NCBI GenBank assembly: GCA_045578845.1
Contig: JAZNLA010000061.1
Location: 12,581-76,580, forward strand
Direction: 5' to 3'
Source: Acutalibacteraceae bacterium
Lineage (GTDB): Bacteria > Bacillota > Clostridia > Oscillospirales > Acutalibacteraceae
Length of the DNA stretch: 64,000 nt
Part shown: in pieces, positions 22,644-53,909 of the stretch
How the letters are laid out: the number at the start of each line of letters is the position of its first letter
Numbering within the stretch: position 1 is the stretch's first letter
Notes under the pieces: model-generated
The model's database searches: none
Told to the model about the DNA's origin: nothing
What the model saw: only the letters and a program-made list of their open reading frames with translations
Translations under genes and position numbers: made by a program

Positions 22644-22688
22644 ATTTGAGAATATAAGCATTTTAATTTTATTTTTAGGGAGGATAAT

Positions 22689-29543: not shown

Positions 29544-29630
29544 ATGTATTGTTCCTTTCAAAAAATTTAAAACTTAATAAATCAATTATACTATATGAGT
29601 TTTAAAAAATCAACCGAAGTAGGCCTAAGG

Positions 29631-30221: not shown

Positions 30222-30224
30222 ATT

Positions 30225-31610: not shown

Positions 31611-31611
31611 A

Positions 31612-34864: not shown

Positions 34865-35060
34865 TATTCTGCTCTTTTCCCGCTTGTTTTTCTAGTTTTT
34901 TAATGAATTTTTCTATTTTTGCTCTCGGGGTCATAACCTCATGTCCGCATTTTTCACACTTAATTTTAAAATCTATACCGACACGCAAAACCAAAAACAT
35001 GTTACAGCCACAAGGATGTGGTTTTTTGAGTTGCAGTCGGTCGCCGATCGAAATATCCAT
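34857..35060 (-). CDS. DUF951 family small protein
   Basis: 67 aa. KKPHPCG...CEKCGH pattern of DUF951. Overlaps the prfA start by 8 nt. Confidence 0.75.
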
Positions 35061-35089
35061 GGAAAAATCCCCCTTTTGAAAAATTTACT

Positions 35090-35129
35090 TAAAAAAGGTA
35101 TGGCAACCCCATAAAAAGCCGCCATACCT
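35090..35129 (-). terminator. Intrinsic terminator after jag
   Basis: Minus strand reads aggtatggc, 16 nt, gccatacct, TTTTTT. Confidence 0.7.
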
Positions 35130-35137
35130 CAAAAAAT

Positions 35138-36103: not shown

Positions 36104-36123
36104 CGTATTTTTCTCCTTAACGG

Positions 36124-37293: not shown

Positions 37294-37302
37294 AGCAAAT
37301 CC

Positions 37303-37593
37303 TTACTTCCGACCGTTAGCCTTGTCGGATAAAAATAATGTGTCCTTTGTGGCGACGGCGTGTTTTTTACGGCGTTCGCCCTTTGACGGTACGGGGTCGT
37401 AACCGCCCTTGCAAAACGGATTGCACCGCAAAATTCGCCAAACAGTAAGAAATAAACCGACTATGGCACCTCTTTCGGCGAAGGCTTCAACCGAATATTC
37501 AGAGCAGGTCGGTGTGAACCGACAGCACGGTGCTTTTAAAGGCGACAAAAATTTGCGGTAAAACTTTACAAGTGCAATAAATATGTGTTTCAT
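37303..37593 (-). CDS. yidD: Membrane protein insertion efficiency factor YidD
   Basis: 96 aa. YRKFLSP...[10 protein letters not shown] signature. Confidence 0.92.
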
Positions 37594-37937
37594 TGTGTGT
37601 TTTCGGGGATTAACCCTAATTTTTCAAGGTGTTCTTTCATAACGCGGGCAATTTCGGTGCTTTTTGTATACGGGGTTTTGCCGCGGGCGACAAAAACAAT
37701 ATCGGCACCGCCGCAGTCTAAATACGGGAAACATTCCCTTGCCGCTGCCGCAATTACCCGTCTTGCCCGATTTCTCATGACGGCACAACCGACTTTTTTG
37801 CCGGAAGTAATACCGTAGCGAATAACACCCAGACGGTTGTTTTGTACATAAGTAACAAGCACAGGGCTAATCATACTACGCCCTCTGCCGTAAAGACGGC
37901 GGAAATCCTTATTAAGATTTAATTTTTCGGATTTCAA
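37590..37937 (-). CDS. rnpA: Ribonuclease P protein component
   Basis: 115 aa. Basic protein with the RNR motif region (AVMRNRARR). rpmH-rnpA-yidD-yidC synteny. Confidence 0.92.
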
Positions 37938-38004
37938 TTAAGCAGTCCTCTCTTTAAAACGTCCTATATATTATAATGTATAGGGCAAAATTAACTCACC
38001 ATTC

Positions 38005-38031
38005 GAAAAAAGGTCACATAAGGTGACCTTT
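38005..38031 (-). terminator. Hairpin plus T-run just after rpmH
   Basis: Minus strand reads aggtcac, cttat, gtgacct, TTTTTT. Possibly a partial terminator, since rnpA follows. Confidence 0.6.
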
Positions 38032-38033
38032 TC

Positions 38034-38168
38034 TCAGTAGGTAAGACTTTGTCTGCCTTTTGCTCTGCGGCGGGCAAGTACCTTGCGGCCGTTAGCGGTA
38101 GACATTCTCTTACGGAAACCGTGTTCCTTCATACGATGAAGTTTTTTAGGCTGATAAGTTCTTTTCAT
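38034..38168 (-). CDS. rpmH: 50S ribosomal protein L34
   Basis: Below the ORF-track size cutoff. My translation is [53 protein letters not shown] upstream. Confidence 0.95.
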
Positions 38169-38279
38169 GGTTACAAACCTCCTTTATTTTCGGTTGCGGT
38201 TATGTCGCGGGGGTTTAGACGGCGTAATATATAACACCCTTAAACGAGTATAGTTACAGACATAACCTATCAATTTAGG

Positions 38280-38309
38280 ATTATACCTCAAATAACCGTA
38301 TTCTGTCAA
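38280..38309 (-). promoter_or_regulatory. Consensus sigma-A promoter for rpmH
   Basis: Minus strand reads TTGACA, 18 nt, TATAAT. About 105-nt leader. Confidence 0.65.
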
Positions 38310-38435
38310 TAAATTTTTGATTTGTTAACATAAATTTTTTACCCTTGGTCCGCAAAACACATTATGTAGTGGGGAAAAATTTCACAAGCACAACGAAAAT
38401 GAGCAAGGGCGGTACGGCTTGCCCGCAAATATCTC

Positions 38436-38535
38436 TTAGGGTTGTCATTCCGAGCGAAGCCGAGAAATCTCTACTGTCTACAAATCGGGGACGGTGTTTA
38501 CAACGTTTTGCGAAATCCCCCTGTCTTGCCGAACG
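38436..38535. repeat. Degenerate copy D of the palindromic repeat family
   Basis: gtcattccgagcgaagccgagaaatc arm (opposite orientation to the ...gctcggaatgac arms of copies A-C), followed by cgttttgcgaaatccccctgtcttgccgaacgg, which resembles the cgttttgcaatctgacctgtcaccctgagcg part of copies A/B. Confidence 0.6.
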
Positions 38536-38597
38536 GTAATCCGCTTATTTGCACAAAAATAAAACTTTTTGCGATGGCAAAAAGCAGTAAGTTGTAA

Positions 38598-38626
38598 TTG
38601 ACTTTGGGTGTGATATAGGGTACAAT
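38598..38626 (+). promoter_or_regulatory. Sigma-A-type promoter for the pyrH operon
   Basis: TTGACT, 17 nt, TACAAT, 35 nt upstream of the pyrH ATG. Confidence 0.6.
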
Positions 38627-38661
38627 GTAAATGAATATAAATTTAACGGAGTTGTGAAATT

Positions 38662-39366
38662 ATGGAACCTGCATTTAAACGAATTTTACTCAAACTCAGC
38701 GGCGAGGTGCTTGCCGGCGAAAAGAAAACGGGCATTGATTTTGGGATGGTTGAAACGGTTTCGGAACGTATTAAAACAATCGTTGAAATGGGTGTTGAGG
38801 TCGGTATTGTTATCGGCGGCGGCAACTTTTGGCGTGGTAGGTCGAGCGGCAGTATGGACCGCACAAGGGCCGACAGTATGGGTATGCTTGCCACCGTTAT
38901 AAACTGCCTTGCACTTTGTGACACTTTAGAGCAAATGGGTGTAAAATCCACTGTTATGACGGCGGTTGATATGAACAAAATCGCCGAGCCGTTTACCGCA
39001 AGAGGTGCTAAAGAACGTTTGGAAAAGGGCGAGGTTGTAATCTTCGGTGCGGGTACGGGAAATCCGTTCTTCTCAACCGATACGGGTGCCGCACTGCGTG
39101 CTGCAGAGATAAATGCAGATGTTATCTTTAAGGCAACCAACGTTGACGGTGTTTACGACTCTGACCCCAATAAAAACCCCGATGCCAAAAAGTTCGACAC
39201 CTTAACACATTCCGATGTTTTAGCAAAGGATTTACACGTAATGGATGCCGCGGCGGCTTCGCTTTGCAGGGACAACGACATTAACATACTTGTATTTAAC
39301 CTTAACGACCCCGACAATATTGTACGTGCGGTCAAGGGTGAAAAAATAGGCACATTGGTAAAGTAA
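38662..39366 (+). CDS. pyrH: UMP kinase
   Basis: 234 aa. [10 protein letters not shown]...GGGN(F)WRG motifs. Confidence 0.96.
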
Positions 39367-39386
39367 TAGAAATAAGGAGATATATT

Positions 39387-39941
39387 ATGAAAACGGTTAT
39401 AAGCAATACAGAAAGTAAAATGGAAAAGAGCCTTGACTCGGTAGCAAGAGATTTTGCGGGAGTCAGAGCAGGCAGAGCCAATCCTTCGGTACTTGACAAG
39501 GTAGCGGTCGATTATTACGGCTGTCCCACACCTATAAATCAGTTGGCGTCGGTTTCGGTTGCCGAGGCGAGAGTTTTGCAAATTCAACCCTATGATGCTT
39601 CGGTTTTAAAGGCCATTGAAAAGGCAATTTTAGTGTCGGACATCGGTATCAATCCTCAAAATGACGGCAGAATTATCCGTCTTACATTCCCGCCGCTTAC
39701 CGAGGAAAGACGTAAAGATTTGGCAAAAGAAATCAAAAAACTTGCCGAAGAAGGAAAGGTTGCTGTTCGTTCGATAAGACGTGACGCCATTGAAAAATTA
39801 AAGGCATTAAAGAAAAACAACGAAATCACCGAAGACGACCAAGCAAACGGTGAAAAGAAAATCCAAACCCTTACAGACAAATACTGCAAGGAAATTGACG
39901 ACCTTACCGCAGTAAAAGAAAAGGAAATCATGGAGATTTAA
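39387..39941 (+). CDS. frr: Ribosome recycling factor
   Basis: 184 aa. Typical RRF sequence (RAGRANPSVLD..V.YYG). Confidence 0.96.
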   Translation: MKTVISNTESKMEKSLDSVARDFAGVRAGRANPSVLDKVAVDYYGCPTPINQLASVSVAEARVLQIQPYDASVLKAIEKAILVSDIGINPQNDGRIIRLTFPPLTEERRKDLAKEIKKLAEEGKVAVRSIRRDAIEKLKALKKNNEITEDDQANGEKKIQTLTDKYCKEIDDLTAVKEKEIMEI

Positions 39942-39963
39942 GTTAAAGAGAGGTGTTACTTTA

Positions 39964-40719
39964 GTGTTTGGCAGAAAGAAACAAATTTTGCCCACAGTGT
40001 TGCCCAACCATATCGGCATTATCATGGACGGCAATGGCAGATGGGCTAAAAAAAGAATGTTGCCCCGTTCGGCAGGCCATGCTGCAGGGTCGGAGAACTT
40101 TAAAACCATTGCCCGCTACTGTAACAAAATCGGTATAAAATATCTTACCGTTTACGCATTTTCGACCGAAAACTGGAAACGTCCGAAAGACGAAGTTGAC
40201 GGTATTATGAACTTGCTTCGCAAGTATTTAAGGGACTCCGAAAACTTTAAAGCCGAAAACATTAAACTTCGGTTTATAGGCGAACTGTCGGTACTGCCCG
40301 AAGATATCAAGGAACTTATCAAAAAGGCGGAGTATGACTCTAAAGACGCTACCGGCCTTACGGTCAACATGGCGGTTAATTACGGCGGCAGAGATGAGAT
40401 TTTGCACGCGGTTAAGGATATTTGCCGCGAGGTGCAAAGCGGCAGTTTGGATATAAACGACATCACTGAGAAGTCGGTTACCGACCGCCTTTACATGAGT
40501 GACTGCCCCGAACCCGATTTTATAATCAGACCAAGCGGTGAGTATAGGCTTTCCAACTTTCTCGTTTGGCAGTCAGCTTATGCTGAGTTTTGGTATTCAG
40601 ATGTTTTATGGCCCGATTTTTCTACCAAAGATTTAGACCGAGCCATTGCTGATTTCAGTCTTCGCAACCGTCGTTTCGGCGGGGTGGAAGAAGAAAAGGA
40701 AGAAGATAAAAAATGCTGA
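39964..40719 (+). CDS. uppS: Isoprenyl transferase (undecaprenyl diphosphate synthase)
   Basis: 251 aa. HIGIIMDGNGRWA and SGEYRLSNFLVWQSAYAE motifs. GTG start. Confidence 0.95.
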   Translation: MFGRKKQILPTVLPNHIGIIMDGNGRWAKKRMLPRSAGHAAGSENFKTIARYCNKIGIKYLTVYAFSTENWKRPKDEVDGIMNLLRKYLRDSENFKAENIKLRFIGELSVLPEDIKELIKKAEYDSKDATGLTVNMAVNYGGRDEILHAVKDICREVQSGSLDINDITEKSVTDRLYMSDCPEPDFIIRPSGEYRLSNFLVWQSAYAEFWYSDVLWPDFSTKDLDRAIADFSLRNRRFGGVEEEKEEDKKC

Positions 40720-41534
40720 CCAGAATTATCAGTGCCATAGTCGGTGCGGCAATTTTTGCGGCGGCTATTGTTGCCTCAATTAAAATTGATTCAATGATTT
40801 TGTTTGTACTCATCACTTGGGTGGGTACTATTGGTGTTTTCGAGGCACTTGTAAACACAGGTTATGTAAAGTCGAGATTGGTTGCTTTTTGCTGCCTTAT
40901 TTATTCACTTATAGTGCCGTTTGCGTACAGTGAGTATATCCCCGTGCCCCATACGGTTTTTGTCGTGTTATTGGGATTTATACTGTTTGCGGCAGGTATG
41001 TGCAATCACGAAAAAATCACACCGTTTGACGTGAGTTACGCGTTCGCGGTTACGGTTGCGATTACCTTTTGTTTCTGGGCGTTCGCGGCTCTGTTCCAGT
41101 CGGGCAAATACGGACTTTTCTATATGCTTTTGGCGGTGCTTATGGCTTGGGGTTGCGACACAGGTGCATATTTTACAGGTGTATTTTTGGGCAAACACAA
41201 ACTTGCCCCCGAAATCAGTCCTAAAAAGACTATTGAAGGTGCAATAGGCGGTGTTATTTTTGCCATGATTTTGATGTTTGTTGCCTGTTTTGTCTTTAAC
41301 AAAGTTACGGGTGTTGCAACTAATGTGACATTGCTTATGATAGCGTCACCTATACTCGCTATTGCGGGTATGCTCGGCGACCTTATTGCATCATATGTTA
41401 AAAGAGCAAGCGGAATTAAAGACTACGGCAAAATTATGCCCGGTCACGGCGGTGTTTTAGACCGTTTTGACAGTATCATGACGGTTGTGCCGCTCATATA
41501 TTTAATGGTTACCTATCTTCCTGTTTTAAAATAA
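40713..41534 (+). CDS. cdsA: Phosphatidate cytidylyltransferase
   Basis: 273 aa multi-TM protein with the C-terminal signature S..KR..G.KD.G...PGHGG.LDR.DS. Confidence 0.93.
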   Translation: MLTRIISAIVGAAIFAAAIVASIKIDSMILFVLITWVGTIGVFEALVNTGYVKSRLVAFCCLIYSLIVPFAYSEYIPVPHTVFVVLLGFILFAAGMCNHEKITPFDVSYAFAVTVAITFCFWAFAALFQSGKYGLFYMLLAVLMAWGCDTGAYFTGVFLGKHKLAPEISPKKTIEGAIGGVIFAMILMFVACFVFNKVTGVATNVTLLMIASPILAIAGMLGDLIASYVKRASGIKDYGKIMPGHGGVLDRFDSIMTVVPLIYLMVTYLPVLK

Positions 41535-41543
41535 GGTGATAAT

Positions 41544-42689
41544 ATGTCAAAAAGTATAGCGGTGTTAGGCTCTACGGGGTCAATAGGTACACAGACCTTA
41601 GATGTTGCAAGACGTAATGGCTTTAGGGTTGAAACCCTTGCGGCTCACAGTAACATTAAATTATTAGAAGAACAGATTAGAGAATTTAAACCCAAAACGG
41701 TTGCCGTATTAAACGAGCAGGCGGGAAAAGAACTTAAAACCGCCGTAGCCGATACTAACACAAAGGTCATTTTCGGCAGTGAGTCGGTTACATCTGCTGC
41801 CGCTTCTACAGGTGCCGATACGGTGCTTAATGCGATAGTCGGTATTGCGGGATTGAAACCCACCTTGGCGGCAATAGAAAACGGCAAGGAAATAGCACTT
41901 GCCAACAAAGAAACCTTGGTTACGGGCGGCAGTTTGGTAAAAAGAAAACTAAAAGAAAAAAATGTTAAATTACTGCCGGTTGATAGTGAACATTCGGCTA
42001 TTTTTCAGTGTTTGCAAGGTGCCCCCGAGGGTGCCTTAAAACGCATAATTTTGACCGCTTCGGGTGGTCCTTTTTTCGGAAAAACACGCGAAGAACTAAA
42101 ACAAGTTACACCCGCAATGGCTCTTAAACACCCTAACTGGAATATGGGTGCTAAAATCACCATTGACTCGGCAACCTTAATGAATAAAGGTCTTGAAGTT
42201 ATTGAGGCGGTGCATCTTTTTGATGTTAACCCTGACAAAATAACCGTTGCGGTGCATAGGCAAAGTATAATCCATTCGGCTGTTGAGTTTAACGACGGTG
42301 CCGTTATAGCACAACTCGGTGCTCCGGATATGCGTTTGCCCATTCAGTATGCCATAACCTACCCCGAAAGGGTAGAGTGCCCGGGTGACGATTTGGACAT
42401 TTTTTCAATGGGTAACCTTACCTTCCAAAAACCCGATTTAGATACCTTTTCCTGCCTTTCTACCTGCATAAAGGCGATAGGCGAGGGCGGACTTAAACCC
42501 GCGGCGGCTAACGGTGCCAACGAAGAGGCGGTACGGCTTTTTTTAGATGGGAAAATCGGTTTTCTCGATATCGCCGAAATCGTAGCCTTGGCAGCAGACA
42601 GTGAAAAACGCACAGGCGTCTATACTTTGGAAGAAATTTTTGACGCCGATAAAGCGGCAAGAGAAAAAGCACTTGCATTTGTGAAGTGA
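41544..42689 (+). CDS. dxr: 1-deoxy-D-xylulose 5-phosphate reductoisomerase
   Basis: 381 aa. GSTGSIGTQTLDV N-terminus and LANKE...DSEHSAIFQC motifs. Confidence 0.96.
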   Translation: MSKSIAVLGSTGSIGTQTLDVARRNGFRVETLAAHSNIKLLEEQIREFKPKTVAVLNEQAGKELKTAVADTNTKVIFGSESVTSAAASTGADTVLNAIVGIAGLKPTLAAIENGKEIALANKETLVTGGSLVKRKLKEKNVKLLPVDSEHSAIFQCLQGAPEGALKRIILTASGGPFFGKTREELKQVTPAMALKHPNWNMGAKITIDSATLMNKGLEVIEAVHLFDVNPDKITVAVHRQSIIHSAVEFNDGAVIAQLGAPDMRLPIQYAITYPERVECPGDDLDIFSMGNLTFQKPDLDTFSCLSTCIKAIGEGGLKPAAANGANEEAVRLFLDGKIGFLDIAEIVALAADSEKRTGVYTLEEIFDADKAAREKALAFVK

Positions 42690-42741
42690 AATCGGCATAA
42701 ACTAATAGGAAAATATAGCATTTAAAAGGCGGTAATCTAAT

Positions 42742-43800
42742 TTGATTTTAGGCAGTGTTTTTGGCACTATTGCAGATGTATGGGGTACGGTTTGGCCTTA
42801 TTTGGCGGCAGTTTTATTGTTTTTGTTCATGATTGTAATTCACGAACTCGGACATTTTGTTGCGGCAAAACTGCTGGGTGTCAGGGTGAATGAATTTGCG
42901 GTCGGTTTCGGACCTGCGATATTCAAAAAACAGGGCAAAGAAACCCTTTATTCACTGCGTGCCGTACCATTTGGCGGATTTTGTGCCATGGAAGGCGAAG
43001 ACGAGGGTAGCAGTGACCCTAAAGCATTTTGCAATAAATCGGCTTGGCGAAGGCTTATAATTATTGTTGCGGGTGCATTTTGCAACCTTGTTTTCGGTCT
43101 TGTGATTGTTATGTTCATTTTAGCCCCTGCCGACCGATTTATTACCACTACCGTTGACGGTTTCCACGAAAATTCAGTCAGTGCCGAAACCTTAGCGGTC
43201 GGTGATGAGATTTTAAAAATCAACGGCAGACGTATTTTTTCGGTCAACGATTTAAGTTACTGTCTTAGCAATGTCGAGGGCGACACCCTTAATATGCGGG
43301 TCAAAAGAAACGGTGAAAAACACGACCTTAACGTGAAATTTAACACCGAAACGGTTGAAGATATAAATTATGTCAAGGTCGATTTCTACCTTGAAACCGA
43401 AAATAAAACATTTTTTACATTCATAGGTCAGGCGTTCACCCGCACCTTTTCATATGCGAGGGTGGTTTGGTTTTCGCTTATTGACCTTATTACGGGCAAG
43501 TTTGGCATAAGCCAAATGTCCGGCCCTGTCGGAATAACTGCGGTAGTAGGCCAAGCGGCAAAAACGGGACTTAGCGACCTGCTTCCCATAATTGCACTCA
43601 TAACGGTCAATTTAGGTGTCTTTAACCTGCTACCCGTTCCCGCACTTGACGGCGGCAGAGCCTTTTTCATACTTGTAGAAATGATAATACGCCGCAAAAT
43701 TCCCGCCAAGTTCGAGGCGGTTGTTCACGGCGTAGGCCTTGTGTTGCTTTTGGGACTCATAGCCGTAATTACAATAAAGGATATTGTCGGTTTCTTTTAA
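42742..43800 (+). CDS. rseP: Site-2 (M50) RIP metalloprotease RseP
   Basis: 352 aa. HELGH zinc motif, one PDZ, C-terminal NLLPVPALDGG. TTG start. Confidence 0.92.
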   Translation: MILGSVFGTIADVWGTVWPYLAAVLLFLFMIVIHELGHFVAAKLLGVRVNEFAVGFGPAIFKKQGKETLYSLRAVPFGGFCAMEGEDEGSSDPKAFCNKSAWRRLIIIVAGAFCNLVFGLVIVMFILAPADRFITTTVDGFHENSVSAETLAVGDEILKINGRRIFSVNDLSYCLSNVEGDTLNMRVKRNGEKHDLNVKFNTETVEDINYVKVDFYLETENKTFFTFIGQAFTRTFSYARVVWFSLIDLITGKFGISQMSGPVGITAVVGQAAKTGLSDLLPIIALITVNLGVFNLLPVPALDGGRAFFILVEMIIRRKIPAKFEAVVHGVGLVLLLGLIAVITIKDIVGFF

Positions 43801-43814
43801 AAGGGGGATTTTAA

Positions 43815-44867
43815 ATGTATACCCGATACGATACAAAAGCAGTAAATGTCGGTGGTATTAAGATTGGCGGCGGAAACAATGTTTCGGTTCAGTCAATGTT
43901 AAACACACCGTCTTATGATATAGAAAAAAGCGTTGCCCAAGCGGTTGAGTTGGAAAAGGCAGGGTGCGATATTATTCGTGCCGCCATTCCCGATTTGGAA
44001 TCGGTAAAACTTATTCCCGCACTTAAAAATGCCGTCAAAACACCTATTGTTGCCGATATTCATTTTGATTATAAATTAGCGATTGAGTCGGCGGCGGCAG
44101 GGGTTGATAAAATAAGAATAAACCCCGGAAATATCGGTGACGAGCAGAGGGTAAAGGCAGTGGTGCAAGCCTGCCGACTGCGTAATATCCCCATAAGAAT
44201 AGGTGTAAATTCAGGCTCGGTTGAAAAAGAAATTTTAAAAAAGTATGGTTCGCCAACCGCAGATGCACTTGTTGAGAGTGCTATGTACCACGCCTCACTG
44301 CTTGAAAAATTTGACTTTGACGATATAGTGATTTCTATAAAATCATCAACCGTTCCCACCATGTTTTCTGCCTATAAAAAAGCGGCCGAAATATGCTCAT
44401 ATCCGTTGCATTTAGGCGTTACCGAGGCGGGCACTTTCCACAGCGGAGTTATAGCTTCAAGTGCAGGCATAGGCGGTTTGCTGCTTAGCGGTATAGGGGA
44501 CACGATAAGGGTATCGCTGACCGACGAGCCTGTAAAAGAAGTTTACGCCGCAAAGGATATTTTAAAGGCGGTAGGACTAAAGAACAACGGCATAAAAATC
44601 GTTTCCTGCCCCACCTGCGGCAGAACGAGGATTGACCTTATAGGAATTGCAAAAAAGGTCGAAGAACTATTGAGAAATTGCGAAAAGAACATAACCGTAG
44701 CCGTAATGGGTTGCGTTGTGAACGGCCCGGGCGAAGCCAAAGAGGCCGACATAGGTATTGCAGGCGGTGACGGTTGCGGACTTATTTTCAAAAAGGGCGA
44801 AATTATAAAAAAAGTGCCCGAAAACGAACTTATCGAAAACCTAATGGCCGAAATCGAGAAGATGTAA
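43815..44867 (+). CDS. ispG: 4-hydroxy-3-methylbut-2-enyl diphosphate synthase
   Basis: 350 aa. C-terminal Fe-S ligands SCPTCGR...GCVVNGPGE. Confidence 0.96.
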   Translation: MYTRYDTKAVNVGGIKIGGGNNVSVQSMLNTPSYDIEKSVAQAVELEKAGCDIIRAAIPDLESVKLIPALKNAVKTPIVADIHFDYKLAIESAAAGVDKIRINPGNIGDEQRVKAVVQACRLRNIPIRIGVNSGSVEKEILKKYGSPTADALVESAMYHASLLEKFDFDDIVISIKSSTVPTMFSAYKKAAEICSYPLHLGVTEAGTFHSGVIASSAGIGGLLLSGIGDTIRVSLTDEPVKEVYAAKDILKAVGLKNNGIKIVSCPTCGRTRIDLIGIAKKVEELLRNCEKNITVAVMGCVVNGPGEAKEADIGIAGGDGCGLIFKKGEIIKKVPENELIENLMAEIEKM

Positions 44868-44887
44868 AAAAGGATAAGGTGTAAATT

Positions 44888-47800
44888 TTGAGCATACATA
44901 AAATGGCAGATGTCTTCGGCAGTGTTATCGAAGATTTCAGTGAGGACATTAAAAATGCAGACTTAGAAACCTGTGATATAAATACGGAAGACAGGCGGCT
45001 TTTTGCCGGCTGTTCTTTTGCCGTATATATAAAAAAAAGTGACATATTAAGTCTGACAGACGCCATTTGTAACCGCCTTAATTTAAGTTCGGTAAAAATT
45101 TCGGGGCGTTTTGCACCCGACTGTTATTGTGCCGCAGCGGCGGAGGACATAGCACATGAACTTCGTGCCGAAAATGTAATGATTAACGGCTATTTTAACG
45201 CCGCTTTGTTTACTGTGGAAGATAAACACACCGAAATTGAACTGAAATACGGCGGTTTTGAAACTTTACAATCGGTAGATTTTGAAAAGAAGTTTAAGGC
45301 TATGGTAAAAGACCGTTTCGGCATCGATGTAAACCTAAAGTTTACAGGCCAACTCCAAGATGTCGAAATAAAAATGCCCGAAATAAAGCAAGAGCCGATA
45401 AAATACACTGAAATTCCGCCTCAAAATAACTACGGTGGTCACGAAACACCGCGTGCCGTTCGCCCAAAGTCGCCAAAAGTTACCGAGCCGAGGCAGATTT
45501 CGGGGCTAAGTATACCTGAAGATTTAGGTATACTGCCCGACTCGGTAGAGCAGGTGTACGGTAAAACTTTAAACGGAACATTTAAAAGACTTAAAGATAT
45601 AAATCCCGAGGACGACGAAAACCTTGTTTGGGGCGAAATCTTTTTTGCCGACGCACATGCAACAAGAACGGGCAAAAGTTACATAGTAAAATTCCAAATA
45701 TACGACGGTACTAACTCAATAACGGTCAAAAACCTTATGGGTACCGCACAGTATGAGGCGTTAAGCGATATAATCAAGGTAGGAAAAACCGTTGTTGTTC
45801 ACGGCAAATACGCTATGGACGATTACGATAAGGACTACTGCCTTGAAATGGATGCCTTGGCTACCGCAAAGAAAAAAGGCGGAAGGGTTGATACTGCAGA
45901 CCAAAAACGAGTAGAACTTCATTTGCACACAAGTATGTCGCAGATGGATGCGGTGTCACCTGTAGCAAATATCATAAAACAGGCGGTAAAGTGGGGACAT
46001 AAAGCAATTGCCATAACCGACCACGGTGTCGTACAGGCGTTCCCCGACGCCATGAATACCCTTGACGATTTACGCCGCAGCGGTGAGGGTGAAGATTTTA
46101 AAATCATTTACGGTGTTGAGTGTTATTTCGTTAATGATGTCACAGGTCAAGCCGACGGCGGTATCGACGGCGGTGTTGACTCGACAACCCTTGAAAGATA
46201 CCATCAAATTATATTGGTTAAAGACCAAGCGGGACTTAAAAATTTATACAAGTTGGTATCTTTTGCACATCTTAATTATTATAAAAAGACGTTAAACCCG
46301 AAAAATCCCGCCAAACCCCGCCCTGCAAAGCCGTTAATTCCCCGTTCGGTGCTCGAAAAATACCGCGAGGGGCTTATTGTCGGCAGTGCTTGCGAACAGG
46401 GTGAAATTTTCCGTGCGGTAATGGATAAAAAGTCGGAAAAAGAACTGCTTGAACTTGCCTCATTTTATGATTATTTGGAAATTCAGCCGCTCGGCAATAA
46501 CGGATTTATGTTAAGGGACGGCTTAGTTCAAAACGAGAAGGATTTAATTAACTTTAACCTTAAAATTATAGAAATTGCCGACAAACTGCAAAAGCCTGTT
46601 GTTGCAACGGGCGACGTTCACTTTTTAAACCCCGAGGATAAGGCACTGCGTACCATTTTAATGGCGGCTCAAAAGTTCAGCGATGCCGAACATCAACCGC
46701 CTTTGTATCTTAAAACAACCGACGAAATGTTGGCTGACTTTAAGTATTTGGGCGATAGGGCAAGAGAGGTTGTAATAGATAATCCAACTAAAATTGCCGA
46801 CATGATAAGCGGTGAAGTCAGAGCGGTGCCGAGCGGCAACTATCCGCCTAAAATCGAAGGCTCTGACGATATTTTGACCGAAAAGGCAATGCGTAGAGCA
46901 AAGGATATTTACGGCGAAGAGTTACCGCCGACAGTTGCAGAACGCCTGCAAAGAGAACTTGACTCTATTATAAAACACGGTTTTTCGGTCATGTACGTTA
47001 CGGCTCAAAAATTGGTTGAATATTCCGAAGAAAAGGGTTATTTGGTCGGCTCGCGTGGTTCGGTCGGCTCGTCTTTTGTCGCTACAATGGCGGGTATTTC
47101 CGAAGTAAACCCACTGCAACCGCACTATGTTTGTCCTAAATGTAAAAACACCGAATTTATTACCGACGGGACTGTCGGCTCAGGTTTTGATCTGCCGCCC
47201 AAGAAATGTCCTAAATGCGGTGCCGATTACAACCGCGACGGACACGATATACCGTTCGAAACCTTCTTAGGATTTGACGGTGACAAGGTGCCCGATATTG
47301 ACCAAAACTTCTCGGGCGAAGTGCAACCCTTTGTCCACAGATACACTGAAGAACTTTTCGGTGCCGAAAACGTTTTTAAAGCGGGCACTATTTCAACCGT
47401 AGCCGATAAAACGGCATACGGTTATGTCAAAGGCTATGCCGAGGACTACGGAAAAACGGTCAATAAGGCCGAGGAAACAAGGCTTGCTACGGCTATTGAT
47501 AAGGCAAGTATCAAACGCACAACAGGTCAGCACCCCGGCGGCATGGTTGTTGTCCCGAGAGATATGGAAATTTACGATTTTTGCCCCGTTCAGCACCCTG
47601 CCGATAAGGTGGACTCCGACATGGTTACAACCCATTTCGATTTCCATAAAATTCACGATAATATACTGAAACTTGACGAACTCGGTCACGATGTGCCGAC
47701 CATTTATAAGTATTTGGAAGAGTATACGGGCGTTCCCGTGCTCTCGGTTTCAATGAGTGATAAAGATGTTATGAGTCTGTTTTTATCGCCCGAGGTATTA

Positions 47801-48727
47801 GGCGTTACCGAGGCGGATATAGGCTCAAAAACGGGTACGTTTGCACTGCCCGAACTCGGTACAAAATTCGTTCGTGATATGTTGGTCGAGTCCAAACCCA
47901 AAACCTTTTCCGATTTGTTGCAGATTTCGGGACTGTCCCACGGTACCGATGTTTGGATAGGCAACGCACAGGAACTTATCCGCAACAAAACCTGTACGAT
48001 TTCCGAGGTTATAGGTACGCGTGACAGTATTATGACCTACCTTATCTACCGCGGTGTGCCAAAGAAAATGGCGTTTAAAATCATGGAAATTGTCCGTAAA
48101 GGCAAGGCTAAAAAACTGCTTACCGAGGAACATTTACAGGTTATGCGAGAGAACAATGTGCCCGAATGGTATATCGACTCTTGCTATAAAATTAAGTATA
48201 TGTTCCCCAAAGCCCATGCGGCCGCGTATATGATTGCGGCACTAAGACTCGGTTGGTATAAGGTCCATCGACCTGTCGAGTTTTACTGTGCGTATTTCAC
48301 AGTTCGTGCCGAAGATGTCGAGGTTGAAACCCTCTTAAAGGGCAAAGAAGCGGTAAAAAAGCGTATCAATGACATAAAACTTTTGGGCAACGCGGCAAGT
48401 GCCAAAGAAAAATCGGTTGCCGATACGCTCGATATTTTCAACGAAATGCTCTGCCGTGGCATTGAGATTTTACCTATCGACCTCAATAAATCCGACGCAA
48501 GAAAGTTCCTTGTAGAAGACGGAAAAATGCGTTTGCCCATAGGCGTTTTGCCCGGTGTCGGTGCCAAGGCGGCGGCCGATTTGGGCGAGGCTCTTAAAAA
48601 AGGCAACTTTATTTCGGTTGACGATTTGCAACTTGAAGCAGGCGTTTCAAAAACCGTTATTGAAGCACTGAAAGGTGTCGGGGCACTTGACTTTTTGCCC
48701 GATACCAACCAAATGACACTGTTTTAA
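44888..48727 (+). CDS. polC: PolC-type DNA polymerase III alpha subunit, apparently without the internal exonuclease domain
   Basis: 1279 aa, TTG start. OB fold, PHP HLHTSMSQMDA, Zn finger CPKCKN...CPKCG, palm PDIDQNF and TTHFDFHKIHDN, GLSHGTDVW and KAHAAAY, all collinear with B. subtilis PolC as I recall it. There is no FDxETTG, HNAxFD or HxAxxD exonuclease motif. Canonical locus after rseP-ispG. Confidence 0.9.
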   Translation: MSIHKMADVFGSVIEDFSEDIKNADLETCDINTEDRRLFAGCSFAVYIKKSDILSLTDAICNRLNLSSVKISGRFAPDCYCAAAAEDIAHELRAENVMINGYFNAALFTVEDKHTEIELKYGGFETLQSVDFEKKFKAMVKDRFGIDVNLKFTGQLQDVEIKMPEIKQEPIKYTEIPPQNNYGGHETPRAVRPKSPKVTEPRQISGLSIPEDLGILPDSVEQVYGKTLNGTFKRLKDINPEDDENLVWGEIFFADAHATRTGKSYIVKFQIYDGTNSITVKNLMGTAQYEALSDIIKVGKTVVVHGKYAMDDYDKDYCLEMDALATAKKKGGRVDTADQKRVELHLHTSMSQMDAVSPVANIIKQAVKWGHKAIAITDHGVVQAFPDAMNTLDDLRRSGEGEDFKIIYGVECYFVNDVTGQADGGIDGGVDSTTLERYHQIILVKDQAGLKNLYKLVSFAHLNYYKKTLNPKNPAKPRPAKPLIPRSVLEKYREGLIVGSACEQGEIFRAVMDKKSEKELLELASFYDYLEIQPLGNNGFMLRDGLVQNEKDLINFNLKIIEIADKLQKPVVATGDVHFLNPEDKALRTILMAAQKFSDAEHQPPLYLKTTDEMLADFKYLGDRAREVVIDNPTKIADMISGEVRAVPSGNYPPKIEGSDDILTEKAMRRAKDIYGEELPPTVAERLQRELDSIIKHGFSVMYVTAQKLVEYSEEKGYLVGSRGSVGSSFVATMAGISEVNPLQPHYVCPKCKNTEFITDGTVGSGFDLPPKKCPKCGADYNRDGHDIPFETFLGFDGDKVPDIDQNFSGEVQPFVHRYTEELFGAENVFKAGTISTVADKTAYGYVKGYAEDYGKTVNKAEETRLATAIDKASIKRTTGQHPGGMVVVPRDMEIYDFCPVQHPADKVDSDMVTTHFDFHKIHDNILKLDELGHDVPTIYKYLEEYTGVPVLSVSMSDKDVMSLFLSPEVLGVTEADIGSKTGTFALPELGTKFVRDMLVESKPKTFSDLLQISGLSHGTDVWIGNAQELIRNKTCTISEVIGTRDSIMTYLIYRGVPKKMAFKIMEIVRKGKAKKLLTEEHLQVMRENNVPEWYIDSCYKIKYMFPKAHAAAYMIAALRLGWYKVHRPVEFYCAYFTVRAEDVEVETLLKGKEAVKKRINDIKLLGNAASAKEKSVADTLDIFNEMLCRGIEILPIDLNKSDARKFLVEDGKMRLPIGVLPGVGAKAAADLGEALKKGNFISVDDLQLEAGVSKTVIEALKGVGALDFLPDTNQMTLF

Positions 48728-48742
48728 AAGCAGGACTTTATT

Positions 48743-49348
48743 ATGTACGAAAATTTTTTCATACCATACCCGCAAATTAAAACTGACCGACTTATAATCC
48801 GCAGAGTACGGAGAAGTGACGCCAAGGGACTTTTTCGTCTTTGCTCACTGCCCGAAACCTCGAAATATTCACTCTGGAGTCCGCATGAGAGTTTAAGCGT
48901 AACCAAACAGTTTATCGCCTACCAACATTCGCTCGAAAGACGGCAAAGTTGCTTTTTCTTTGTTGTTGAGGAAGCGGCAAGTAAAGAAATTGTCGGCTCT
49001 TGCAGTTATGTGTCGTTTGACGAGTTTTATAAAATTGCCGAAATCGGCTACAGTGTATTAAAATCACGGTGGGGGAAAGGCTACGGCACCGAAATTGCCG
49101 ATGCCCTTACGGCGTTCGCCTTTAACCGAATAGGCGTGCAACGTGTATTTGCAAGGGTTGTGCCCGAAAATGTGTACTCTGCGGCAGTGCTTGAAAATTT
49201 GGGGTTTGCCTTTGAGGGCACCCTCAAAAAAGCCTACTATTACGGTGAAAAATCCTACGATATTGCGGTTTACGGCATGACCGACGACCAATTCAAAAAG
49301 AGAGAAAATGAAAATGGAACTAAAGAAAATTGCGAGTTTTACGGTTGA
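48743..49348 (+). CDS. GNAT-family N-acetyltransferase (RimJ/RimL-like)
   Basis: 201 aa. GNAT motif A region (RWGKGYGTE). Confidence 0.85.
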   Translation: MYENFFIPYPQIKTDRLIIRRVRRSDAKGLFRLCSLPETSKYSLWSPHESLSVTKQFIAYQHSLERRQSCFFFVVEEAASKEIVGSCSYVSFDEFYKIAEIGYSVLKSRWGKGYGTEIADALTAFAFNRIGVQRVFARVVPENVYSAAVLENLGFAFEGTLKKAYYYGEKSYDIAVYGMTDDQFKKRENENGTKENCEFYG

Positions 49349-49772
49349 CCACAGCACCCTTAAAAAAGGGATTTACATTTCCCGAATTGACGGGGACATT
49401 ACAACCTATGACATAAGAATGAAACCCCCAAATATGGGTGACTATCTTGAAAACAAGGCACTTCACACGCTTGAACACCTCATAGCAACCTTTTTAAGAA
49501 GCGGTGAAAAGGAAAACGAGATTATCTATTTCGGCCCCATGGGTTGCAGAACGGGTTTTTATCTGCTTGTAAGAAACATAGAGCCTAAAGACGTGATAGA
49601 ACTTATAAAATCAGCCTTTAAATTTTCGGCGGATTTCAGCGGTACAATCCCGGGCACTACCGCAATAGAGTGCGGAAACTATCTTGACCATGACCTTTCA
49701 GGTGCAAAACAAGAGGCAAATGAATTTTTACTTGTTATACAAAATTACACAGTCGAGCGGTTAAAATACTAA
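49308..49772 (+). CDS. luxS: S-ribosylhomocysteine lyase LuxS
   Basis: 154 aa. HTLEHL metal motif and GCRTGFY. The start may be the second ATG, at 49314. Confidence 0.93.
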   Translation: MKMELKKIASFTVDHSTLKKGIYISRIDGDITTYDIRMKPPNMGDYLENKALHTLEHLIATFLRSGEKENEIIYFGPMGCRTGFYLLVRNIEPKDVIELIKSAFKFSADFSGTIPGTTAIECGNYLDHDLSGAKQEANEFLLVIQNYTVERLKY

Positions 49773-49859
49773 GTAAAACCGCTTTATATAAATATTTCCA
49801 CTAACCCCGAGGTGTCACATCTTCGGGGCCAAAGTGCTTTTAAAAATAAGGAGAAAATT

Positions 49860-50444
49860 ATGTTTTTCAGCAAACCTAAATATGAAAAAATTATTGTAGG
49901 ACTCGGCAACTTCGGGGATAAGTATGAGGCAACCCGTCACAATGTCGGATTTAGGTGTATTGATTTGATTGCTAACAATAAAGAGGTTGTTTGGAGAAAC
50001 AAATTTGAGTCGCAGATTGCAGACATTTCGTTAAACGGTAAGAAAATTTTGCTTGTAAAACCAATGACCTATATGAACAATTCGGGGCGTGCGGTGAGCG
50101 GTATTTTAAAGTTTTATAAAATGCAACCCGAAAGCGTCATAGTAATTTCCGACGACGTTTCAATGGAGGCGGGCCGACTGCGTATTAGGGCAAACGGCAG
50201 TCACGGCGGTCATAACGGACTTCGTGACATCATAGAACTTATAGGCAGTGACAACTTCGCCCGCGTAAAGGTCGGTGTCGGTCAAAAACCGCACCCCGAT
50301 TATGACCTTGCCGACTGGGTTTTGGGCAAACCGCAGGGGGAGGACCTTGAAAAATTAAAGGAAACCGAAGGTTTGGCCGCTAAGGCGGTGCTTTCTATTG
50401 TGACCGACGGCGTGCAAAAGGCAATGAGCAAATTTAACCGATAA
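49860..50444 (+). CDS. pth: Peptidyl-tRNA hydrolase
   Basis: Start is at ATG 49860 (AAGGAG RBS), inside track ORF 49812-50444. GLGNFG..Y..TRHNVGF and GGHNGLRDI motifs. Confidence 0.94.
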   Translation: MFFSKPKYEKIIVGLGNFGDKYEATRHNVGFRCIDLIANNKEVVWRNKFESQIADISLNGKKILLVKPMTYMNNSGRAVSGILKFYKMQPESVIVISDDVSMEAGRLRIRANGSHGGHNGLRDIIELIGSDNFARVKVGVGQKPHPDYDLADWVLGKPQGEDLEKLKETEGLAAKAVLSIVTDGVQKAMSKFNR

Positions 50445-50456: not shown

Positions 50457-53400
50457 ATGGATTTCAGATATAAATTTTTAAGCGAAAGTTTGGGTAGTAC
50501 CGAAAGTTTCGGCAAAATTCTGACAGCAGTAAAAAACGAAAAATACCCCATAGCACTGTCGGGAATTTCCCATATCCAAAGGGTGTTGCTGTCGGCGGTG
50601 CTACAGCAAGAAAACTCTCAAAAACTGCTTATAATTACGGCGGGCGACTCCGAAAGCGAACGCACCATAGAAGACCTGACAGCGTTAGGTATAACCTGTG
50701 TTTACTATCCCGCAAGAGAGTATTCCTTTAGAAGCGGTGTTACGGTTTCACATGAGTACGAGCACAAAAGACTGGGTGCGTTATCCCGTGTTTTAACCGG
50801 TGAGTTTGATGTTTTGGTGGCGTCGGCCGATGCGGCGGTCAGTGCGACTGTGCCTGTTAAAGTGCTTAGAAACCGCAGGTTTAAACTTAAAACCGCCGAG
50901 GAAATCTCGGTCCAAGATATAATATCCCGACTTGTCGCGGGCGGTTATTCACGTGCCGAGCAGGTCGACGGTGCAGGACAGTTTTCGGCAAGAGGAAGTA
51001 TTATCGACATCTTTCCGCCTAATTTGGAAAATCCTTGCCGAATTGACTTTTTCGGTGACGAAATTGACACGATTTACATTTTTGACCCCGATACACAGCG
51101 TCGTACCGACAGTGTTGACGAGGTGGAAATTTTCCCCGTTTCGGAAATATTCCCCGAAACAAAAGAGGATTTTAAGGTTAAATTAAAGGCACTTTGTGAA
51201 AATAAAAAAACTTCGGCTAATATAAAACAGAGAATAACCGAGGATTTGGATAGATTAGAGGCGGGTGCGAATATAGGCTTTGACGCCTATATTACGCAGG
51301 TGTACGGTACATCTGCCACACTTTTTGATTATTTTGAGTCGTTTCCCTATTCCACACTGATTTTCGACACAAACGGTTGTTTAGAAAAAATAGACAACTG
51401 TTTAAAACTTCATTTTGAGGAAATAAAACAACTGCTTTCAGAGGGTGTTTTACCGCCCGATTTTAAATCGGTTTATTTGGATAGGGTGGGTTTTTGCGAA
51501 AGGTTAAAAACCCATAATACTATCTACTGCGACAGTTTTCAAAAAACATCTTATGAGCCTAAACCCTTTACAGTTTTACCGCTTGACTACCGCCAAAACG
51601 GAAATTTCGGCGGCCCTGTCGCCTCGCTTTGCGAGGATATAAAATCGGCAAACAGGAAACTTACCGTAATACTTGCGGGCGGTGAAAAAGCGGCATCAAA
51701 CTTGACCGAAGAACTGAACGAACGCGGTATAAACGCCGTATTTTGTGCCGAGCCCGAAAGGGTGGGCAAAGAGGGCGTATTTATAACCGTAGGTTTTTTA
51801 AGTGCAGGGTTTGAACTGCCCGAAGCAGGATTGTCATGCATAGTTTACGGTAAAACCGCCGTCAAAAAGACAAAACACCGCTTTAAAAAGGGTAACGCCG
51901 TCGGCTCTTTAGAGGAATTGGAACGTGGCGACTATGTAGTCCACGCAAACCATGGTATAGGAATATTCAGCGGTGTCGAACAACTGACCACCCACGGTGT
52001 CACAAGGGACTATATAAAAATAAATTACGCGGGCAAAGACGCACTTTATGTACCCGTCACCTCGCTTGATATGGTGTCGAGATATATCGGCAGTGCCGAG
52101 GATAGTGCTGTAAAACTCAACCGTTTAGGCTCTGCCGAGTGGTCAAGAACGAGAACCAGGGTAAAAAAAGCAGTTAAGGATATGGCAAAGCAACTGACCG
52201 CTTTATATGCAAAGCGAATGCATGCCGAAGGCTACGCCTTTTCGCCCGACGGCGATATGCAGTCCGATTTTGAACGCCGTTTTAATTTCGATGAAACCGA
52301 CGACCAATTGCGTTGCTCAGCCGAAATCAAAAAGGATATGGAACGCAAGGTGCCCATGGACCGCCTGCTTTGCGGTGATGTAGGCTTCGGCAAGACCGAG
52401 GTCGCGTTTCGAGCTGCCTTTAAGGCCATAGCCGACGGCAAGCAGTGTGCTTTGTTGGTGCCGACCACAATCCTTGCTTGGCAACACTACAATAACGCTC
52501 TTGAGCGGTTCGGTAATATGGCGGTTGAGGTTGAAATGCTTTCGCGTTTCAGAACTTTAAAACAGCAGGAAAGAATAAAAAAAGACTTGGCGGCGGGCAA
52601 TATAGATTTAATCGTCGGCACCCATAGTCTTATTTCAAAGGACGTAAAATTTCGCGATTTGGGACTTATAATCGTCGATGAAGAACAACGTTTCGGCGTT
52701 GCACAAAAAGAAAAACTAAAAGAACTGTATCCTACGGTCGACGCCCTTACGCTGTCGGCAACACCCATTCCCCGAACGCTTAACATGGCACTGTCGGGGC
52801 TTCGCGACATGTCCTCAATAGAAGAAGCACCTGCTGACCGAAGGCCTGTGCAAACCTTTGTCATGGAACAAAACATGGGTGTTATCGACGAGGCGATAAG
52901 CAGGGAATTACGACGAGGAGGACAGGTATATTATCTTCATAACCGCACCGAAAATATAGAAACCGTAGCGGCGAAAATTGCCGAACGGCACGAAGGTGCG
53001 AGCGTTGCCGTAGCACACGGAAAAATGGGCGAAGAAGAACTGTCGAAAGTGTGGCAGCGTTTGATAGAGCATGAAATTGATATTTTAGTCTGCACCACCA
53101 TTATCGAAACGGGCGTAGACGTGCCTAATGTCAATACGCTTATAATCGAAAACGCCGACCGTTTAGGTCTTGCACAACTGCACCAGTTAAGGGGCAGAGT
53201 CGGCAGGTCACACCGCACTGCGTTTGCCTATCTTTTGTATGCGGGCGGTAAGGCTTTAAGCGAAATTTCTCAAAAACGGCTTGACGCAATAAGGCGGTTT
53301 ACCGAGTTCGGCTCGGGATTTAGAATAGCCATGCGTGACCTTGAAATAAGGGGTGCGGGCAGTATTTTGGGCGGTGAACAGCACGGGCATATGGAAGCGG

Positions 53401-53909
53401 TCGGTTACGATATGTATTTAAAACTGCTTAACGATGCCATAGCCGAAGAAAAGGGTGAAACTACCGCCGAACAAAAAGACTGTACCGTCGATATGCGTCT
53501 TTCGGCACATATCCCCGAACGGTATATAAAATCGCTGTCGGGCAGGCTTTTTGCGTATCGACGAATTGCCGGTATAAGAACAAAAGAAGATGTCTTAGAC
53601 GTCACAGACGAACTTATCGACCGTTACGGCGAGCCGCCGCAGGCGGTACTCACCCTTATAGATGTGTCATATCTCAGAGCCGAGGCAACCAAACTTGATA
53701 TAACCGAAATAGCCGAAAGAAACGGCAGAATTCTACTTTTTACAGACGGTTTAACCGAAGCGGTTGCAAAACTGGTTTCGTCGCCGATAAAAAGAAGGGT
53801 TTTGTTCAGTGCGGGTACAAAGCCGTATGTATCGGTAAGACCTGCCGAAAATCAAAAACCCATTGACACTTTAAAAGAGGCACTTTGCATTATGTCCGAA
53901 GAAAAATAA
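50457..53909 (+). CDS. mfd: Transcription-repair coupling factor
   Basis: 1150 aa. SF2 helicase motifs GDVGFGKTEVA and DEEQRFG, TRG motif region, pth-mfd synteny. Confidence 0.96.
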   Translation: MDFRYKFLSESLGSTESFGKILTAVKNEKYPIALSGISHIQRVLLSAVLQQENSQKLLIITAGDSESERTIEDLTALGITCVYYPAREYSFRSGVTVSHEYEHKRLGALSRVLTGEFDVLVASADAAVSATVPVKVLRNRRFKLKTAEEISVQDIISRLVAGGYSRAEQVDGAGQFSARGSIIDIFPPNLENPCRIDFFGDEIDTIYIFDPDTQRRTDSVDEVEIFPVSEIFPETKEDFKVKLKALCENKKTSANIKQRITEDLDRLEAGANIGFDAYITQVYGTSATLFDYFESFPYSTLIFDTNGCLEKIDNCLKLHFEEIKQLLSEGVLPPDFKSVYLDRVGFCERLKTHNTIYCDSFQKTSYEPKPFTVLPLDYRQNGNFGGPVASLCEDIKSANRKLTVILAGGEKAASNLTEELNERGINAVFCAEPERVGKEGVFITVGFLSAGFELPEAGLSCIVYGKTAVKKTKHRFKKGNAVGSLEELERGDYVVHANHGIGIFSGVEQLTTHGVTRDYIKINYAGKDALYVPVTSLDMVSRYIGSAEDSAVKLNRLGSAEWSRTRTRVKKAVKDMAKQLTALYAKRMHAEGYAFSPDGDMQSDFERRFNFDETDDQLRCSAEIKKDMERKVPMDRLLCGDVGFGKTEVAFRAAFKAIADGKQCALLVPTTILAWQHYNNALERFGNMAVEVEMLSRFRTLKQQERIKKDLAAGNIDLIVGTHSLISKDVKFRDLGLIIVDEEQRFGVAQKEKLKELYPTVDALTLSATPIPRTLNMALSGLRDMSSIEEAPADRRPVQTFVMEQNMGVIDEAISRELRRGGQVYYLHNRTENIETVAAKIAERHEGASVAVAHGKMGEEELSKVWQRLIEHEIDILVCTTIIETGVDVPNVNTLIIENADRLGLAQLHQLRGRVGRSHRTAFAYLLYAGGKALSEISQKRLDAIRRFTEFGSGFRIAMRDLEIRGAGSILGGEQHGHMEAVGYDMYLKLLNDAIAEEKGETTAEQKDCTVDMRLSAHIPERYIKSLSGRLFAYRRIAGIRTKEDVLDVTDELIDRYGEPPQAVLTLIDVSYLRAEATKLDITEIAERNGRILLFTDGLTEAVAKLVSSPIKRRVLFSAGTKPYVSVRPAENQKPIDTLKEALCIMSEEK

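Follow-up and report, generated by a model that had tools for sequence, protein, structure and literature searches.

A polC gene without an exonuclease domain

The window analysed here, a 64,000-nt stretch of contig JAZNLA010000061.1 from an Acutalibacteraceae bacterium, carries on its + strand, at positions 44888..48727, a polC gene for a PolC-type DNA polymerase III alpha subunit in a variant form that lacks the internal exonuclease (exo) domain. Upstream on the same strand lie the conserved genes pyrH, frr, uppS, cdsA, dxr, rseP and ispG (38662..44867), each assigned by an NCBIfam equivalog match, which bears out the canonical locus proposed in an earlier reading of the bare sequence (hereafter, the original prediction). 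The start of polC is ambiguous: the longest open reading frame (ORF) begins with TTG at 44888 and encodes 1279 aa, whereas ATG at 44903 gives 1274 aa; the database copy of the identical protein (P0001) has its start at this ATG, five codons further on, and is 1274 aa long. The ORF scores 1427.8 bits with NF001688, the NCBIfam PolC equivalog (cutoff 873), and 1290.9 bits with the PolC equivalog TIGR01405 (cutoff 1043). Both models match it in two stretches; in the listed stretch of NF001688, query residues 435-1279 correspond to profile positions 612-1444, which leaves unmatched some 190 positions of the profile immediately before the junction, at the site of the exo domain. Pfam places PHP at residues 343-532, DNA_pol3_alpha at 662-933, the finger domain at 948-1082 and HHH_6 at 1191-1271, and the domain order is that of a PolC: OB fold, PHP, Pol3 core and C-terminal tandem helix–hairpin–helix, (HhH)2. 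We regard it as virtually certain that the protein is a bona fide PolC and a real, conserved exo-less form. The intact frame and the equivalog scores also agree with the view that the gene in this locus encodes the primary replicase and not a decayed paralogue.

The region at issue, nt 46121-46204, encodes residues 412-439, CYFVNDVTGQADGGIDGGVDSTTLERYH. Within it, a 19-aa linker, TGQADGGIDGGVDSTTLER (residues 419-437; 46142..46198, + strand), takes the place of the DnaQ-like exonuclease domain. When aligned with exo-containing sister proteins (P0047 and P0050-56; 1431-1443 aa), the window PolC shows a gap of about 172 aa at the linker. The corresponding block of the sisters lies between YGVExYFxND and RYHQIILVK and holds the motifs FDVETTG, HNAxFD and HHRAxDD. 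The ORF translation and this alignment confirm the coordinates, flanks, linker and length deficit given in the original prediction.

Several searches bear on whether an exonuclease domain is hidden within the protein or has moved elsewhere. Pfam finds no RNase_T (PF00929) in the 1279-aa ORF even at E<=1. A hidden Markov model (HMM) built from the exo domains of the sisters was run over all six reading frames of the window and gave no genuine match: the one region that it picked out (22650-23444, E=0.004) is ThyX, a Thy1 protein according to Pfam. The same HMM has no match in the 1.49 Mb of sequence around polC in the 80 best-matching species loci described below. A Foldseek search with an AlphaFold2 (AF2) model of residues 230-1279 returned no DEDD exonuclease fold, and the Exo I-III motifs (DxE, NxxxD and HxxxxD in an RNase T fold) by which DnaQ/epsilon-type DEDDh enzymes are recognised are absent from the protein. 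Pfam at E<=1, the exo HMM (six frames of the window and the 80 loci) and Foldseek thus exclude a hidden or relocated exo domain, and the domain loss reported in the original prediction stands on a family search, a purpose-built HMM and a fold search.

The linker DNA does contain the 9-bp direct repeat gacggcggt-atc-gacggcggt that had been singled out before. In a sister strain of 99.4% identity, one synonymous change makes the repeat imperfect (gacggAggt); because of this we attach no meaning to it. The repeat is also ruled out as a deletion scar, as the length of the linker is conserved in the clade and the repeat is imperfect in the sister strain.

Collinearity with a crystallized deletion construct

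The best sequence match in the PDB is PolC of Geobacillus kaustophilus (3f2b; 1091 bits), which aligns with residues 233-1279 in one collinear stretch. According to the Figure 1 legend of Timinskas et al. (2014; PMC3919608), the 3f2b construct lacks the N-terminal domain (NTD) and Exo. At the junction, the alignment pairs DDGVPIAYNETHRRLGSGSGPFHV of 3f2b with the natural NDVTGQADGGIDGGVDSTTLERYHQ and needs only one gap, of a single residue. The G. kaustophilus structures (3F2B, 3F2C and 3F2D) and the window PolC are thus collinear through the junction, and the engineered, GSGSG-containing linker and the natural one differ in length by one residue. Judged from this alignment, the natural deletion is nearly the same as the one that the crystallographers engineered. 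The two proteins differ in that the G. kaustophilus construct is artificial (delta-N, delta-exo) and the native enzyme has the exo domain, whereas the window PolC keeps its N-terminal domain.

The AF2 model has a mean predicted local distance difference test score (pLDDT) of 74.8. In the PHP region the block means are mostly 79-94, with low blocks besides the linker of 65, 72, 57 and 53; the linker itself is modelled as a loop with a short helix, and residues 420-424 fall below 50. The top Foldseek matches of the model are 3f2c and 3f2b (TMq 0.74, TMt 0.78, 50% identity).

The remainder of the protein runs as expected. The N-terminal domain is matched by no tool and is placed from the roughly 230 residues before the OB fold, which align with other PolCs. 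The OB region (45665..45811, + strand) is a weak Pfam tRNA_anti-codon match (residues 260-308, E=0.11); it contains AF2 beta strands at model residues 16-98 and aligns to the OB region of 3f2b. The PHP domain occupies 45914..46621 (+ strand), that is, the Pfam match (E=5e-31) extended to the last two metal ligands, and is followed by the palm and fingers of the polymerase core (46871..48133, + strand; DNA_pol3_alpha, E=1e-54, and finger). Inside this core lies a Zn module, CPKC...CPKC (residues 747-783; 47126-47236, + strand). The PDID and KLD motifs and the four-Cys Zn module match G. kaustophilus PolC residue for residue and are invariant in the PolC alignment; we take the PDID and KLD residues to be catalytic, as in the structure of that enzyme. 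A tandem helix–hairpin–helix (48458..48700, + strand; HHH_6, E=2e-11) precedes the C-terminal beta-clamp-binding motif QMTLF (residues 1275-1279; 48710..48724, + strand), which was read from the sequence. PolC C-terminal clamp motifs of the same position and form (QIELF, QMTFF and QLCLF) have been tabulated (Timinskas et al. 2014, PMC3919608). The claim that the protein is otherwise collinear is upheld by the continuous alignment to 3f2b and by the Pfam domain order and, as far as sequence tells, the enzyme keeps everything required of a clamp-tethered replicase.

Relatives near and far lack the domain as well

A contig from the Joint Genome Institute (JGI; Ga0451895_0216392, metagenome 3300041547) is 99.4% identical to window positions 29386-47280. 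The 107 mismatches mark it as a different strain that was independently assembled, and its junction is the same as that of the window, save for the synonymous change in the short direct repeat. This independent assembly meets the concern, raised with the original prediction, that the deletion might be an assembly collapse. An identical gene order surrounds another exo-less PolC (P0067) on a 2.5-Mb contig.

The architecture extends well beyond these strains. PF00929 is missing from each of the 46 protein clusters nearest to the window PolC (57-100% identity, 1252-1303 aa). A scan of the GTDB species representatives yielded 432 relatives, and among the best 80, on which the locus analyses were performed, every polC is exo-less (80/80), with stop-to-stop frames of 1258-1315 codons. 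Most of these 80 loci come from metagenome-assembled genomes (MAGs) of Acutalibacteraceae from gut and rumen; the rest are labelled Oscillospiraceae, Ruminococcaceae, Clostridiaceae, Ruminococcus sp., Eubacteriales or Clostridia. The exo-less architecture is conserved over hundreds of assemblies, so that the deletion, which the original prediction had suggested looking for in close relatives, is common to close and distant ones. Core identity across the PolCs compared is 64-84%, and purifying selection along the whole protein is, to judge from these alignments, strong.

A complete PHP metal site

The nine PHP ligands read from the alignment are H345, H347, D354, H379, E411, H439, C502, D576 and H578, or HHDHEHCDH, in accordance with the earlier claim that all nine are intact. 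A 2026 survey by Venclovas and colleagues (PMC12926913) takes HHDHEH[C/H]DH as the signature of an 'active' PHP domain and any deviation from it as incomplete; the window PolC has the complete nine-ligand set. So do 191 of 192 exo-less relatives. G. kaustophilus PolC has N at the position of D576 (GNVH as against GDVH in the window protein), and its nonad is therefore incomplete under the 'any deviation' rule of PMC12926913. The exo-containing sisters P0047 ('Oscillospiraceae bacterium') and P0051 ('Candidatus Howiella sp.'; both within the 1431-1443 aa range) share 68-69% core identity and the same PHP nonad with the window PolC, and differ from it in carrying the DEDDh domain of about 172 aa between the YGVE strand and RYHQ.

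Recurrent loss of the exonuclease domain

When 1.84 billion cluster representatives were searched exhaustively with HMMER, with residues 230-1279 as the query, 13,913 matched at E<=1e-3; the best 150 were analysed. Representatives of 50%-identity clusters with a full length of >=1100 aa were then grouped by what stands at the exo site. An exo domain is recognisable in 94, and 60 of these have an intact PHP nonad. In 23, a short linker of 11-61 aa separates the residues equivalent to E411 and H439 (nonad intact in 22), and nine have an insert of 142-291 aa without DEDDh motifs (intact in all nine). Intact PHP sites thus occur in 31/32 proteins without a functional-looking exo domain and in 60/94 with one (Fisher p=1.6e-4, not phylogeny-corrected).

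The nine degenerate inserts (P0256, P0270, P0277, P0285, P0295, P0297, P0307, P0320 and P0332) give no Pfam RNase_T match even at E<=1. At least three of them (P0295, P0320 and P0332) nevertheless align to the exo-domain profile with an hhalign probability of 93-96%. From their sequences, these inserts look like inactivated, catalytically dead relics of the exo domain, at an intermediate stage that precedes its deletion.

On a neighbour-joining tree of 136 full-length PolCs, the short-linker state requires 18 parsimony changes, and bootstrapping (100 replicates) gives a minimum of 12 and a median of 17; the trees use Kimura distances and no outgroup model, which makes the exact count of losses unreliable. 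That PolC has lost the domain several times independently is, on this sequence evidence, a reliable conclusion. Together with P0002 and P0043, the window PolC makes up a clan that contains exo-less proteins only. The exo-containing P0051, P0052, P0047 and P0050 are nearer to it (68-69% core identity) than are the 1285-aa proteins of the other large clade without the domain (64-66%), and the loss in the window lineage appears from these comparisons to be independent of that in other exo-less clades. Linker length varies from clade to clade, as expected for independent deletions.

Some PolC-like proteins depart further. P0346, a full-length protein of 1178 aa, has no exo domain and a degenerate PHP nonad, HRSLENTDQ, and so contains neither recognised proofreader. 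The same combination occurs in short PolC-like proteins of 850-980 aa (P0294, P0352, P0367 and P0382).

Search for a partner polymerase

Neither dnaE nor dnaQ is present in the window or in about 20 kb of extra flank, and the ORF at 50457-53909 (1150 aa), considered as a DnaE, was rejected, being Mfd. When the window and 81 polC loci were searched with tblastn for the N-terminus of DnaE1, only PolC-level matches of 27-30% identity appeared, and in the 80 related loci the 10 kb around polC contain neither dnaE nor a DnaQ-like gene. DnaE1 genes are nonetheless common in MAGs of Acutalibacteraceae and Ruminococcus sp., as found with the N-terminus of E. harbinense DnaE1 and then with a spliced full-length DnaE1 as queries; the E. 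harbinense query (from the Timinskas supplement) recovered only partial or split proteins. By analogy with other Clostridia, the window PolC probably works with a DnaE1.

One group of these genes is of separate interest. In contigs of a relative, 'uncultured Ruminococcus sp.' (L084 6001-12325; also L085 and L086), a group II intron with an ORF for a 626-aa RVT_1 protein splits dnaE1. It sits exactly inside a conserved motif of the palm, GLLKMD|FLGLRNL, and leaves ORFs of 553 aa and 619 aa; an intron-less allele that is 99% identical also exists (P0391, 1160 aa).

Surroundings of polC

The origin region of the chromosome makes up the left end of the window, with recF (1277-2347), dnaN (2555-3661) and dnaA (3913-5208), all on the - strand, and an intergenic region at 5.2-5.7 kb; gyrB and gyrA lie just outside the start of the window (Pfam on L093). 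Therefore, polC is about 40 kb from dnaA. The GC skew is -0.12 and then turns positive after about 12 kb, and the GC content of the first 4 kb is unusually low, at 0.33 against about 0.43. If the origin adjoins dnaA, polC is probably co-oriented with replication. In Firmicutes, the jag-yidC-yidD-rnpA-rpmH cluster usually adjoins dnaA at oriC; here it lies at about 35138-38170 on the - strand, some 30 kb from dnaA and divergent from pyrH (Pfam on L094), a rearrangement of the usual surroundings of the origin.

A stand-alone protein of 247 aa (21781-22524, - strand) has weak Pfam matches to PHP (E=2e-4) and PHP_C (E=2e-3) and no NCBIfam assignment; its gene adjoins prs and thyX-tmk. On the 3' side of polC, on the + strand, are the ORF of a GNAT acetyltransferase (48743-49348) and luxS (49308-49772), which overlap by 41 nt when the first start of each is taken, followed by pth (49812-50444) and then mfd (50457-53909).

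Discussion

PolC without an exonuclease domain is already known at the level of comparative genomics. Timinskas, Balvociute, Timinskas and Venclovas (2014, NAR 42:1393, PMC3919608) found that 6% of PolCs have no Exo and that, except for one extra PolC copy in Thermotogae, these are confined to Clostridia and Negativicutes. The PolCs of these two groups are paired with DnaE1, and 16% of those in PolC+DnaE1 systems lack the internal exonuclease (PMC3919608). In the supplement of that survey, the PolC of nine PolC+DnaE1 genomes has the architecture NTD+OB+PHP+Pol3+HhH, and all nine have a typical DnaE1. The same source gives the nonad HHDHEHCDH and the C-terminal QIELF for Acidaminococcus fermentans (YP_003399045.1, 1191 aa) and A. 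intestini (1210 aa). Because such proteins were reported in 2014 with conserved PHP sites and DnaE1 partners, the novelty implied by the original prediction does not hold, and the window PolC is one more member of a published variant. It has the same NTD+OB+PHP+Pol3+HhH architecture, and shares with that variant the HHDHEHCDH nonad, a C-terminal Qxx(L/F)F and a setting in Clostridia: its nearest relatives are MAGs of Acutalibacteraceae, Oscillospiraceae, Ruminococcaceae and Clostridia, and Acutalibacteraceae belong to the class Clostridia. It differs from the Acidaminococcus proteins in coming from Clostridia and not Negativicutes, and in being longer (1279 aa as against 1191-1210 aa). What is added here to the published variant is the recurrence of the loss, the dead exo relics as intermediates, and the occurrence of the loss alongside an intact PHP site. 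The literature searched yielded no experiments on PolCs of this kind.

Precedents for editing by a PHP domain come from DnaE1-type enzymes. Rock and colleagues are said to have described in 2015 proofreading by the PHP domain of Mycobacterium tuberculosis DnaE1. Banos-Mateos et al. (2017, PMC5636811) refer to the PHP proofreading exonuclease of that enzyme, and PHP proofreading in Thermus thermophilus Pol III alpha is attributed to Stano et al. (2006) in a later preprint (10.1101/2021.07.30.454558). Like the window PolC, both are C-family replicases with no DEDDh domain of their own and a complete nine-ligand PHP site; they differ from it in being of the DnaE1 type with a demonstrated activity, whereas the window protein is of the PolC type and known here from sequence. 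A closer case is Clostridium thermocellum, a PolC+DnaE1 organism in which the PolC substitution C669Y makes a 30-fold hypermutator (Lanahan et al. 2021, bioRxiv 10.1101/2021.07.30.454558). C669 is the metal-binding Cys of the PHP domain and corresponds to C502 of the window PolC; unlike the window protein, C. thermocellum PolC retains its exo domain. The 30-fold effect means that errors made by PolC matter in a PolC+DnaE1 organism. By analogy, the mutant is evidence, if indirect, that the PHP site of PolC contributes to fidelity in a clostridium of this kind.

On balance, we consider it rather probable that the window encodes an exo-less PolC replicase that edits its own errors by its PHP site, with a probable DnaE1 partner. 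The DnaQ-like DEDDh domain, the hallmark of canonical PolCs, has been cut cleanly out of the PHP domain, and the PHP fold is now closed by a short loop at the same place as, and with nearly the same length as, the engineered linker of G. kaustophilus PolC. Errors would then be edited through the intact trinuclear-metal PHP active site, and a DnaE1 encoded in the source genome would act as partner polymerase alongside PolC, as in other Clostridia. Of the possible routes to fidelity, PHP proofreading seems the most likely for the window PolC, from its complete ligand set, which hardly varies among exo-less and relic-bearing PolCs, from the excess of intact nonads where a functional-looking exo domain is absent (31/32 against 60/94), and by analogy with the enzymes above.

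Several observations weigh against this account. The PHP nonad is intact in 8/8 exo-containing sisters as well, which makes it a trait of Clostridia in general, not one that specifically offsets loss of the exo domain. Both phylogeny and the choice of sequences around the query confound the association between exo loss and an intact PHP site. C669Y could act by misfolding and not by loss of catalysis. In the literature searched, we found no biochemical exonuclease activity for the PHP domain of any PolC, and in the DnaE1 searches of relatives DnaE1 and an exo-less PolC were not tied to one assembly.

Errors might instead be removed in trans, by a stand-alone DnaQ-like DEDDh exonuclease or by the PHP domain of DnaE1, leaving the PHP domain of PolC with a structural role or another one, for example as a pyrophosphatase. 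Bacterial proteomes contain, on average, over three DnaQ homologues that stand alone, and trans-complementation between PolC and DnaE3 has been noted in B. subtilis (PMC12926913). The PHP ligands of the relatives' DnaE1, as read from the spliced L084 protein, are intact, and a pyrophosphatase role is reported for the E. coli PHP domain (PMC4822814). Against this, the window and the 10 kb around polC in the 80 related loci contain no DnaQ-like gene, and trans proofreading would leave the near-invariance of the nine PHP ligands in exo-less PolCs unexplained; we consider it unlikely. That PolC goes without proofreading altogether, either in a reduced role with DnaE1 as the bulk replicase or at a higher error rate countered by mismatch repair, strikes us as quite unlikely. 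Some Clostridia have DnaE1 only, exo-less PolCs are clostridial only, and it has been speculated that DnaE1 is the main replicase (PMC3919608); the recurrent loss and decay of the exo domain, and P0346 with neither exo domain nor PHP ligands, point the same way. However, the whole protein is under strong purifying selection (core 64-84% identical), it keeps its clamp motif and its place in the canonical locus, nearly all exo-less forms have the PHP ligands, and disruption of a PHP ligand in C. thermocellum gives the 30-fold mutator. Lastly, the deletion could be a collapse in the assembly, or the gene could be a pseudogene or a decayed accessory paralogue. We found nothing in favour of any of these; the window probably comes from a MAG built from short reads, of which about 84 kb were inspected. 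The open frame, the same junction in an independent strain, the presence of the deletion in hundreds of assemblies, including the 2.5-Mb contig, the canonical locus and the scores above the PolC equivalog cutoffs all speak against these explanations, which are next to impossible.

The reading of an exo-less PolC that edits through its PHP site has a wider form, which we put forward tentatively and with rather more doubt than conviction: in clostridial PolC the PHP site may be the primary and sufficient proofreader, and the DEDDh domain a redundant one that has been lost or inactivated many times independently. The sequences behind this are those of the 136 representatives, with at least 12 changes of state, and of the catalytically dead relics. 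The DEDDh insert is usually regarded as the proofreader of PolC, and is part of the rationale for the biology of PolC in Gram-positive bacteria and for PolC-targeted antibiotics. If the wider form is true, exo-less PolCs would be natural minimal replicases that rely only on PHP editing and that are abundant in the Acutalibacteraceae of gut and rumen. With the variant itself already published, the interest that remains lies in its recurrent origin, the dead relics and its abundance in gut and rumen Clostridia. A large and abundant group of these bacteria replicates with a PolC that has no DEDDh domain, and its exo-less members offer the cleanest setting in which to study how polymerases divide their labour and how fidelity is maintained.

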